DNA from: Thiotrichaceae bacterium
GTDB lineage: Bacteria > Pseudomonadota > Gammaproteobacteria > Thiotrichales > Thiotrichaceae
Length of the DNA: 31,877 bases
Reading direction: 5' to 3'
Assembly (NCBI GenBank): GCA_027008665.1
Contig: JALVEA010000180.1
Coordinates: 1-31,877, forward strand
The translations under genes and the position numbers were made by a program. Shown piece by piece: positions 11,889 to 15,104 of this stretch. The notes below the pieces were generated by a model that saw only the letters and a program-made list of their open reading frames with translations, did not search any database and was not told the origin of the DNA. Positions within the stretch are counted from its first letter, which is position 1; every line of letters starts with the position of its first letter.

Positions 11889-13085
11889 ATGTACAAAAAA
11901 ATCCTCGTCATACTTTATTTATCTGCTTCATTAACAAGTGCAGGACAAGCCAGAGAAGTCTCTATAGAAACACAGATACAAGGTCTCTATATTGCTTATT
12001 TTAATCGGGCAGCAGATAAAAATGGCTTGGATTTTTGGCGAAGTCGAGCGGCACAATCTAATGATAATAAAGCTATCTTAAAGGAGCTTTCAGCAGGTTT
12101 TTCTAAGCATCCTACTTTTTCTGCAACCTATGCACATTTGTCAAATCGAGCGTTTGTTGAGGCCATTTACCGCAATGTCTTGGGTAAGGACGGGGATAGT
12201 AGCGGAATCGATTTTTGGACTCAAACACTTGATCGGGGGGTAAGTCGTTCAGATATAGTGTCGGATTTTGTCGAAGCTTCTTTAACAAGCGAATTAACTC
12301 CTGCAAATTTTCCTCATTTAAGTACTTCAGACTTAGCAATAGCACAACAGCGACAAGATTTAATCACTAATAAAACCTTGGTTGCAGAAAGTTTTACCAC
12401 TTCATTAGGGCTATATAGCAATATAGAAAATACATCCCACCCAGAAAATGATCCTGCCTATTTAGCTTCAATTGCTATTCTTGCTGATATTAATGAAGAA
12501 ATTTCTAGCGTCTCTGAAAAGATAAATTATTTATCAAGTATTATAAATACCAGCAACCCAATTGCTGAAATTAATGGTACAGCTAATCAAGGTGGTAATG
12601 ATAATTCCATTCCTGTTCTTTCTAGTGAAGAAATATCAGACTATTTAAATGCCATTAATCAAGCCAGAGCGGTACAACAAAATTGCCACTCAAAAGGTAT
12701 ATTTCCTGCCGTTGCTCCTCTATCATGGAATAATAAGCTTTATCAAGCCGCTTATGAACACAGCTATGACTTAGCCACCAGCAATACCTTCTCACATACA
12801 GGATCAGGCACAGCCACTGATTGGACAGGGGTTGCATTAGGCAAGCCAAGCTCTCCAGGGGATCGGATTGAACATTATCATTATAATTGGAGAGGATATG
12901 GGGAAAATATTGCAGCAGGAACTTTCACTAATACAGCCACTATTGCTGTTCAGCAATGGCTAGATAGTGATGGTCATTGTGCCAATTTGATGAGTAGCAA
13001 TCATACCGAGGTAGGGATGGCAATGGTATACAATGCCAGCTCCACTTATACACATTACTGGACACAGAATTTTGGTACACAATAA
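11889..13085 (+). CDS. Secreted protein with an N-terminal DUF4214 (S-layer-anchor-like) region and a C-terminal CAP/SCP domain
   Basis: Signal peptide; QIQGLYIAYFNRAAD..GLDFW and FVEAIYRNVLGKDGD..GIDFW (DUF4214-type); INQARA...W...L..AA.EHS.D...FSH...GENIA...W..S.GH (CAP). Confidence 0.8.
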   Translation: MYKKILVILYLSASLTSAGQAREVSIETQIQGLYIAYFNRAADKNGLDFWRSRAAQSNDNKAILKELSAGFSKHPTFSATYAHLSNRAFVEAIYRNVLGKDGDSSGIDFWTQTLDRGVSRSDIVSDFVEASLTSELTPANFPHLSTSDLAIAQQRQDLITNKTLVAESFTTSLGLYSNIENTSHPENDPAYLASIAILADINEEISSVSEKINYLSSIINTSNPIAEINGTANQGGNDNSIPVLSSEEISDYLNAINQARAVQQNCHSKGIFPAVAPLSWNNKLYQAAYEHSYDLATSNTFSHTGSGTATDWTGVALGKPSSPGDRIEHYHYNWRGYGENIAAGTFTNTATIAVQQWLDSDGHCANLMSSNHTEVGMAMVYNASSTYTHYWTQNFGTQ

Positions 13086-13171: not shown

Positions 13172-13554
<383 letters not shown>

Positions 13555-13849
13555 TTTTTTATATTTCAATTCAGGAGTGTATACGCTCTTGAATCTTGGC
13601 TCCTAATCGCTTTTATTTACGTGTTCATTTCCTTGGAGTAGCTTAAAATAATATTGCCAACCTCCTCACTATGATTATTCTCCTATCTCTTCCTTTGGTT
13701 GTTTACTATTCATTCAAAAACTTAAAGTAATTTATGAAGTTTTATTTTTAGTTGTATGTAACAAAAACAAGTTCTTCTTTTTTTCAGTTTGGCTGTTAAT
13801 ACCTTTGGTCTAAGTAATTGTCTTGTATAGAAATTCAACGCCATTAGGG

Positions 13850-13879
13850 ATAGACCTATAGGGAGTTGAGGTCTATAAT
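13850..13879 (+). promoter_or_regulatory. Candidate dcw promoter (TAGACC-N17-TATAAT) overlapped by a perfect inverted repeat ATAGACCT-N11-AGGTCTAT
   Basis: -35 at 13851-13856, -10 at 13874-13879; repeat arms at 13850-13857 and 13869-13876. Confidence 0.6.
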
Positions 13880-13887
13880 TAGCCACA

Positions 13888-14064
13888 GTGGATAGAGAGG
13901 GTGTTGATTTCTCTATTTTATATCGAACAGAGCATGTAGGAATACCTGAAAGTTACTGAGAGTCGATTCTTAAAATTCAATCTATCAGAAGTAAATGGTG
14001 ATTACAGTTAATCATACGAATAGTTGTTTATTACTATCTCCAAAGGGATGAATGGTTGAGTTAG
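13888..14064 (+). pseudogene. mraZ: Decayed mraZ remnant (first SpoVT/AbrB-like domain only)
   Basis: Frame A: GVDFSILYRTEHVGIPESY*E; then a -1 shift (AAATG at 13993-13997) to MVITVNHTNSCLLLSPK; then a +1 shift to DEW. Colinear with MraZ GxxxxxLDxKGRxxxPxRYRE...MVxTxDxxxxCLLLYPxxEW, and it sits in the canonical mraZ position. Confidence 0.7.
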
Positions 14065-14132
14065 TTAGACTCAGAGTAATTTGGAAACTGATAATATGTT
14101 AAGTCAGATTTCTTTGTAAGAGTGTAAAGAAT

Positions 14133-15104
14133 ATGAGTGGTGCATTGTTGTCAGAATTTGAACATACAACTGTTTTGTTACATGAGGCCGTAGAAGCACT
14201 AGCCATTAAAAGTGATGGTTTTTATATTGATGCTACCTTTGGTCGCGGTGGTCATTCAAGATTAATTATTAATCGATTAAATCGCAATGGGTGTTTGTTA
14301 CTAATCGATAAAGACCCTCAAGCAATTGCTTATGCGAATGAAAAATATGCAGATGATCCTCGTATATTAGTTTGGCAAGGTTCGTTTAAAGATTTCCCTA
14401 TCGCATTAGAACAATTGCAAATTAACAGAAAACCTGATGGTTTATTGCTTGATTTGGGGGTTTCATCGCCACAGTTAGATGATGCCTCGCGTGGTTTTAG
14501 TTTTCAGCGTGATGGCGCATTAGATATGCGTATGAACCCAGAGACGGGTGAAAGTGCTGCTAAATGGTTGAGTTATGCAGAAGAAAAAGAAATTGCAGAT
14601 GTATTGTGGCAATTTGGAGAAGAACCTTTTTCTCGAAGGATAGCTCGGATGATTATAAAAGAGCGTGAGTTTGAGCCAATAGAGACAACCTTGCGTTTAG
14701 CAACAATTGTGTCAAATGCGGTGCCTAAATCGAAACAAAAGAAAGGAAAAAATCCAGCAACACGTAGTTTTCAGGCAATTCGTATTTTTATTAATCAAGA
14801 ATTGGATGATTTAGACGCTTGTTTGAAATATTCAATGCAATGGTTAGCAAAACACGGACGGATTGTTGTGATTAGTTTTCATTCATTAGAAGATAGAAGG
14901 GTTAAACGTTTTTTAAAAGGCAAATCTTCCCTGCCTAAATTACCACGAGGATTGCCTGTAATGAATGCTCAGATGGAGCAACTAATGGGTGAAACAGTTG
15001 TTTGTAAGCTGATTGGTAAGCCGATAAGGGCATCTCAACAGGAGCTAGAAAATAACGCCCGCTCACGTAGTGCCATTATGCGAATTGGAGAAAAAATAAG
15101 GTGA
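14133..15104 (+). CDS. rsmH: 16S rRNA m4C1402 methyltransferase RsmH (MraW)
   Basis: HTTVLL.E, DATFGRGGHS, LDLGVSSPQLD..RGFSF, PATRSFQAIRI, SFHSLEDR, N.RSRSA. Confidence 0.99.
   Translation: MSGALLSEFEHTTVLLHEAVEALAIKSDGFYIDATFGRGGHSRLIINRLNRNGCLLLIDKDPQAIAYANEKYADDPRILVWQGSFKDFPIALEQLQINRKPDGLLLDLGVSSPQLDDASRGFSFQRDGALDMRMNPETGESAAKWLSYAEEKEIADVLWQFGEEPFSRRIARMIIKEREFEPIETTLRLATIVSNAVPKSKQKKGKNPATRSFQAIRIFINQELDDLDACLKYSMQWLAKHGRIVVISFHSLEDRRVKRFLKGKSSLPKLPRGLPVMNAQMEQLMGETVVCKLIGKPIRASQQELENNARSRSAIMRIGEKIR

Follow-up and report, generated by a model that had tools for sequence, protein, structure and literature searches.

A probable mraZ pseudogene between a conserved promoter and an intact rsmH at the head of the dcw operon in a hydrothermal-vent Thiotrichaceae bacterium

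The stretch of DNA analysed here (the window, 31,877 nucleotides in all) is contig C180 of a 2.58-Mb MAG, assembled in 497 contigs and 95.5% complete, from an uncultured hydrothermal-vent Thiotrichaceae bacterium of a Cocleimonas-like genus. The nearest named relatives of this organism are vent MAGs labelled Thiotrichaceae or Cocleimonas, and the sequencing runs that carry window DNA are mostly vent metagenomes. The window contains a dcw operon in which rsmH is followed by ftsL, ftsI, murE, murF, mraY, murD, ftsW, murG, murC, ddl, ftsQ, ftsA and ftsZ. Judged by their Pfam matches rsmH, ftsL, ftsI, ftsW, ddl, ftsQ, ftsA and ftsZ are intact, murE, murF, mraY and murD are full-length when compared with relatives, and the open ORFs taken as murG and murC are so named from their positions only; the preliminary description of this DNA, made from the sequence by itself, had called the operon otherwise intact, and the Pfam matches and full-length ORFs agree. 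The gene murB lies outside the cluster, where a 303-aa ORF is ddl, and the ORF 3′ of ftsZ (31321 onwards) encodes a UDP-glucose/GDP-mannose dehydrogenase, not lpxC. On the other side, 5′ of rnpB, an ORF at 11889–13085 (orf398) specifies a protein of 398 aa that combines DUF4214 and CAP (cysteine-rich secretory protein) domains. Between rnpB and rsmH lies a gap of 574 bp (13559–14132) with no ORF of 60 aa or longer, as the preliminary description had also found. In what follows, G000 is the species of the window, G005 its sister species and G009 a third species of the same clade. The features at this locus are:

13172–13558, + strand: rnpB, the class A bacterial RNase P RNA, next gene upstream; Rfam RF00010 (330 bits, E 9.5e-108)
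13701–13886, + strand: conserved dcw (Pmra-like) promoter region, alignable in each of the eight same-genus genomes compared, whether or not they have mraZ
13888–13916, + strand: decayed MraZ operator and 5′UTR remnant, from the alignment and a map of the boxes; the stretch earlier translated as VDREGVDFS
13917–14043, + strand: 5′ piece of the probable mraZ fossil, nt ~23–148 (codons ~8–49); nhmmer, tblastn (MVITVNHTNSCLLLSP) and MAFFT alignment
14041–14046, + strand: junction of a ~236-bp internal deletion (mraZ nt ~149–384, codons 50–128); overlapping nhmmer matches, same junction in G005
14044–14119, + strand: 3′ piece of the probable mraZ fossil, codons 129–151 and the original TAA stop (14117–14119); nhmmer, tblastn (QSNLETDNMLSQISL)
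14133–15104, + strand: rsmH (mraW), intact and now first in the dcw operon; PF01795 over its full length, E 6.9e-107; 91% amino-acid identity to G005

The segment 13917–14119 is very probably a non-coding pseudogene, the remnant of the mraZ gene that stands first in the dcw operon and acts as its autoregulator. An intact 151-aa mraZ stands between rnpB and rsmH in seven of ten genomes of the genus, and the references for comparison were such intact genes, fetched from relatives (G001–G004, G006 and G008; 151 aa, PF02381 twice), in place of the E. coli sequence used in the preliminary description. A DNA HMM built from six intact same-genus mraZ genes was run with nhmmer against the whole 2.58-Mb genome, and just two matches had an E-value below 1, both of them in the rnpB–rsmH gap: 13917–14060 matches mraZ nt 23–164 with an E-value of 8.7e-11, and 14037–14119 matches nt 378–456 with an E-value of 1.5e-8, while the runner-up stands at 1.3. 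The 151-aa MraZ proteins of relatives were also aligned to the window with tblastn, a comparison proposed in the preliminary description, and three colinear pieces in three frames were found: 13995–14042 (MVITVNHTNSCLLLSP, MraZ residues 34–49), 14038–14061 (LQRDEWLS, residues 127–134) and 14060–14116 (VS, a stop and TQSNLETDNMLSQISL, residues 133–151), the last of them followed by the stop at 14117–14119. Within that last piece, QSNLETDNMLSQISL is 80% identical to MraZ residues 137–151. Since the tblastn pieces and the nhmmer matches fall in the syntenic slot, between rnpB and rsmH as in every intact congener whose contig reaches rnpB, the homology of the remnant is real and its position orthologous. 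The locus order rnpB–promoter–mraZ–rsmH, the strand, the upstream promoter and the position of the stop codon are all common to the remnant and the intact genes, and compared with the closest of these (G004 and G006) the DNA is 66–70% identical in the 5′ piece and 76–77% in the 3′ piece.

A search of the organism's own genome with PF02381 in six frames gave no match at the remnant or anywhere else, even at E<=10, and a family-wide protein HMM found only weak matches in six-frame translations of the gap (E-value 1.2e-4 for residues 31–56). The generic Pfam model is too insensitive for this remnant. Its silence could also be read as a sign that the likeness to MraZ arose by chance in AT-rich DNA between genes, and one earlier match was indeed chance: the N-terminal G-x5-L of the preliminary description, which had taken 13888–13926, VDREGVDFS(ILY), for codons 1–12, rests on 11 of 36 identical nucleotides, and the stretch aligns instead to the GTGG-box operator and 5′UTR of relatives. 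Against chance stand the nhmmer E-values and their distance from the runner-up, the colinearity of the pieces on the correct strand, and the exact syntenic slot, in which the remnant stops at the ancestral stop codon, 13 nt 5′ of rsmH; coincidence on this scale is extremely improbable.

The anatomy of the remnant agrees in part with the first reading of it. The translations quoted earlier are present, in that the frame 13888+3n reads VDREGVDFSILYRTEHVGIPESY, a stop and ESILKIQSIRSK, the frame 13995+3n reads MVITVNHTNSCLLLSPKG and a stop, and the frame 14041+3n reads QRDEWLS and a stop. DNA alignment bears out the I-P-x-x-Y match (13942–13956), the MVITV-H---CLLL-P match (13995–14042) and the single-base readings at K13, G14 and R15 (ACA GAG CAT vs AAA GGG CGT), at R23, which became TGA, and at Y48, which became S. 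R15, which belongs to the first DXXXR DNA-binding motif, reads H, and the second such motif is inside the deleted part. At the 5′ end the start codon and the first ~7–12 codons are gone, and there is a 4-nt gap at codons 11–12; the boundary falls at 13917 or 13927, with the first ~10 nt (13917–13926) aligned at low confidence and ~30 nt around it resembling the G009 5′UTR too. Codon 23 is the in-frame TGA (13957–13959), and relative to the intact genes there are insertions of 4 nt (13973–13976) and 1 nt (13992). These two insertions are what had been described as a lost A at 13993–13995, a reading in which the net effect on the frame was right and the event was not.

The extra G placed near 14046 is in fact the junction of a deletion of ~236 bp, at 14043/14044 (CCAA|AGG), where a CAA microhomology lies beside the D-E-W-L motifs of the two repeat domains of MraZ. 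The two nhmmer matches overlap at 14037–14060, a segment that fits both nt 146–164 and nt 381–400, because the breakpoints adjoin the homologous P-M-D-E-W-L and Q-R-D-E-W-L motifs. For the same stretch DEW (14047–14055), read earlier as the first-domain M-D-E-W, fits the C-terminal Q-R-D-E-W-L (codons 128–133) at least as well. A deletion that joined the two GATGAATGG (D-E-W) repeats in frame is the alternative to the junction at the CAA microhomology, which needs fewer extra changes; the two are not strictly separable. The second domain had been thought essentially deleted, and this is roughly right, with nt ~149–384 missing. The fossil does not end at 14064, as first supposed, and runs on to the original stop at 14117–14119 (SNLETDNMLSQISL and the stop), so that the last 24 codons had been missed, although these and the TAA are well preserved. 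They are interrupted by a 4-bp tandem duplication, AGTT/AGTT at 14059–14066, which is specific to G000, and by TAG stops at 14062–14064 and 14066–14068.

Compared with intact same-genus mraZ, then, the window lacks the start codon and codons 50–128, and carries TGA and TAG stops and frameshifts. About half of the gene is gone, and between the lost start, the TGA, the +4, +1 and +4 insertions and the ~236-bp deletion no usable ORF is left, the longest in the remnant having 18 codons. A functional MraZ, a SpoVT/AbrB-like protein, is one ORF of ~150 aa with two tandem PF02381 domains, each with a DXXXR motif, and the window encodes no such protein. The central proposal of the preliminary description, that mraZ has decayed in place, is thus upheld by the missing start codon, the in-frame stops, the frameshifts and the loss of roughly half the gene.

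Frameshifts are a common type of error, and the genome is a MAG in 497 contigs, so the lesions might be artefacts of assembly or binning in an organism that truly has an intact mraZ. Several observations make this exceedingly unlikely. Logan contigs from runs of three studies, assembled independently, cover 13514/13607–14400 and are identical across the entire remnant, with 0 differences and 0 gaps, and the Logan contig of a fourth run covers 13922–14152 with zero differences. The separately assembled genome of the sister species G005, whose RsmH is 91% identical, has the same start loss, the same 236-bp internal deletion and the same loss of operator boxes, and the third species G009 has a different deletion of ~340 bp at the same locus; deletions this large are not sequencing errors. 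The identical contigs and the deletions common to G005 thus exclude sequencing error, for which the preliminary description had advised a check. G005 has lesions of its own, namely insertions of +13 and +12, and has no AGTT duplication; because the small lesions of the sister species are different, no ORF is conserved. Nor does a second copy appear in the 95.5%-complete, 497-contig assembly when it is searched with PF02381 (six frames, E<=10) and with the genus DNA HMM, and within that assembly the loss of the regulator, which an intact mraZ elsewhere would have contradicted, stands.

When the loss is mapped on a tree inferred by maximum likelihood from six dcw proteins in concatenation (2840 columns), the topology is ((G000,G005)100,G009)100, and this clade is sister to the mraZ-keeping group (G001,(G004,G006)), with G007 as a separate deep branch. 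The start region and the ~236 bp were evidently lost in the common ancestor of G000 and G005, and each of the two species evidently added its own small indels and stop codons later. In G009 the ATG and nine codons are kept (21 of 28 nt identical), after which the sequence jumps to nt ~365–370 across the ~340-bp deletion, and the tail has in-frame stops. Since its deletion differs from that of G000 and G005, the large deletions are independent. Nothing recognisable as mraZ is present in the 663-bp gap of G007, which indicates a probable independent and older loss. A scan of metagenome contigs for the exact pattern of the deletion junction found no match and no extra members of the clade.

In the family as a whole, a MraZ match is present in 60 of 71 good-quality genomes and missing from 11; half of the 14 control genomes also lack one, and the phrase near-universal regulator, used earlier, is therefore an overstatement. 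Two of the 11, G051 and G053, are not scored as losses because their rsmH lies at a contig end. The Thiofilum genomes G013 and G020, as well as G016, are without mraZ, and in G013 and G016 rnpB adjoins rsmH. In another genus G085 (L124, 1260–1492) has a frameshift and an internal deletion, with residues 11–55 and 52–89 in two frames and then the C-terminal LNQVS, and G088 (L125, 1268–1492) keeps only residues 75–151, a degraded second half; both have the rnpB–[remnant]–rsmH arrangement and fragmented mraZ of the window, with lesions that are different and independent. The closed genome G073 has a 330-bp gap (L123, 1168–1494) with nothing recognisable in it. In genus g7, G023 has a single MraZ-domain match (C266, 1793–1966), in a reading frame open for only 67 aa, and the congener G016 lacks any; the short MraZ of G023 could be another truncated mraZ or the effect of a contig end.

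In model bacteria mraZ is non-essential. Natural loss of the gene has been published for multicellular, longitudinally dividing Neisseriaceae (Nyongesa et al. 2022, PMC9395523), and the two cases are alike in being lineage-specific, in the conservation of the dcw cluster, in their detection by comparative genomics and in occurring in families with multicellular or filamentous forms. They differ in that the gene is reported to be absent from those Neisseriaceae and its loss was tied experimentally to dcw down-regulation and morphology, whereas in the window part of the gene can still be recognised, its lesions are mapped and the operator has decayed with it. Loss of mraZ is known and fairly common, and the window holds one instance of its recurrent loss in Thiotrichaceae. 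With mraZ dispensable and its loss in nature already described in print, the finding adds to what is known and does not alter it. What the locus offers is a clean, phylogeny-dated case of a dispensable autoregulator vanishing, in which gene, operator boxes and start region decay together, the promoter that serves the essential division genes downstream is preserved, and sister lineages differ in what they have deleted at this locus. It also bears on annotation: the remnant is invisible to the generic Pfam model and is detected only by a DNA profile at the level of the genus, so such losses will usually be scored as absent rather than decaying.

The promoter upstream of the remnant is of the sigma-70 type, with a −35 TAGACC (13851–13856), a spacer of 17 nt and a −10 TATAAT (13874–13879), and this site is the best promoter-like one in the gap (10/12). 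The promoter region is 89% identical to that of G005, against ~75% expected from four-fold sites. In intact relatives, GTGG boxes lie directly 3′ of the −10, at +37, +47 and +57 from the start of the −35 and therefore with a period of 10 bp, and three of four have an extra GTGG box in the promoter spacer. Three GTGG at a 10-nt period make up the published MraZ binding repeat, or MraZ boxes, of the mra promoter (bioRxiv 10.1101/2022.02.09.479790; Eraso 2014, as cited in PMC8475190 and PMC9395523), a repeat described in B. subtilis, in E. coli and in Mollicutes (bioRxiv 10.1101/2022.02.09.479790; PMC8475190). The intact relatives have the same layout as this known repeat, and in the window its first box alone remains. 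Only the +37 box is kept in the window (13888–13891) and in G005; a 10-bp deletion took out box 2, and mutations have altered box 3 (GAGGG), where G000, G005 and G009 have substitutions in common. A MraZ operator of at least three GTGG boxes at a 10-nt period is accordingly absent from the mra promoter of the window.

Two further observations concern the same promoter region. An 8-bp inverted repeat, ATAGACCT...AGGTCTAT at 13850–13877, spans the −35 and the −10 in the mraZ-less G000, G005 and G009, and has one mismatch in G007; the four aligned congeners with an intact mraZ read GGGGGTAT, GGGGCTAT or AAGACTAT before the −10 instead (loci compared: L019, L020, L021, L014 and L016–L018). Any association of this repeat with the absence of mraZ would be weak, as seen in one clade and one lineage. 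Further upstream, at 13701–13850, two blocks 5′ of the −35 are strongly conserved throughout the genus, in genomes with and without mraZ, one of them a near-palindrome (ACTTAAAGTAAyTTATkAAGTT) and the other TCTAAGTAATTGTCTTGTATAGAAA; a further regulator of the dcw promoter may bind there.

While the gene and two of the three GTGG boxes have decayed, the promoter TAGACC-N17-TATAAT is conserved, and we infer that the dcw operon is still transcribed from its old promoter without MraZ control, with the ~245-nt mraZ-derived remnant as the 5′ leader of an rsmH-ftsL-ftsI... transcript. The place of the MraZ boxes over the presumed transcription start suggests that what was lost is repression. MraZ is a repressor in E. 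coli, B. subtilis and Mycoplasma, and its loss in E. coli has no obvious phenotype (PMC8475190; bioRxiv 10.1101/2022.02.09.479790), while in Neisseria elongata MraZ activates and its deletion lowers dcw expression (PMC9395523).

The remnant has diverged more slowly than neutral sequence would. From 13887 to 14119, operator, UTR and remnant together, G000 and G005 are identical at 204 of 227 positions (90%; 88% by MAFFT), whereas the base-matched four-fold expectation is 74.8% identity (binomial p 8e-9). Four-fold sites of the dcw genes and orf398 are 75–77% identical between the two species, and the adjacent spacer 13559–13700 is 71.8% identical, as expected for neutral sequence. Between G000 and G005 the remnant has thus gathered indels but few substitutions. 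Divergence slower than synonymous would follow if the remnant served as a leader, and it would fit residual constraint on a transcribed leader, hinting that the dead first genes of operons can persist in this way. A recent recombination tract could also lower the divergence, and the third positions of the flanking orf398 and rsmH, where identity shows no tract-like elevation, argue against one, if not decisively.

One could go further and propose that the remnant has been co-opted into a working part of the dcw transcript, a cis-acting leader or small RNA kept by selection, which would act on the stability or processing of the transcript or the translation of rsmH. The divergence between G000 and G005, 10% in the remnant where four-fold sites show 25% and the adjacent spacer 28%, speaks for this, as do the 3′ tail, which is 71–77% identical to intact relatives and G009 where four-fold identity between G000 and G009 is merely 45%, the conservation of the promoter that would transcribe the remnant, and a precedent in the long dcw leader with an sRNA, UpsM, of Rhodobacter sphaeroides (PMC5089854). 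Yet G000 and G005 differ by five or six indel events in ~230 bp, the fold of the leader is not significant (MFE z −1.4), it has no match to Rfam at E<=1, and no covariation is seen in the two sequences (G000 and G005). Most of the part kept in these two species is moreover deleted in G009, so that an element needed by all three species could lie only within the last ~80 nt. Co-option is accordingly a possibility that we hold to be doubtful, and a decayed mraZ remnant that would serve as the 5′ leader is the reading we prefer. Broader still, and more speculative, is a scenario in which mraZ was lost repeatedly in Thiotrichaceae (the genomes compared carry at least five sets of lesions of independent origin), the G000/G005 remnant was kept by purifying selection as a cis-acting dcw leader, and regulator, operator and leader were rewired together, possibly in connection with a filamentous multicellular habit and in parallel with the mraZ-less multicellular Neisseriaceae; we regard it as unlikely in this full form.

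Two other elements of the gap were seen. Inside the 3′ remnant, at 14066–14095, lies a second promoter-like site, TAGACT-N18-GATAAT, which is conserved in G005 and which G009 and the intact relatives lack; it amounts to no more than a match to the consensus, in a region with 4 such sites vs 2.4 expected. In the neutral spacer 3′ of rnpB, at 13609–13647, there is a short dispersed repeat of ~30–39 nt, TTATTT[AG]CGTGTT[CT]ATTTCCTTGGAGTAGC, with two more copies in the organism's own genome (C198 and C356), several in G009 and two in G005.
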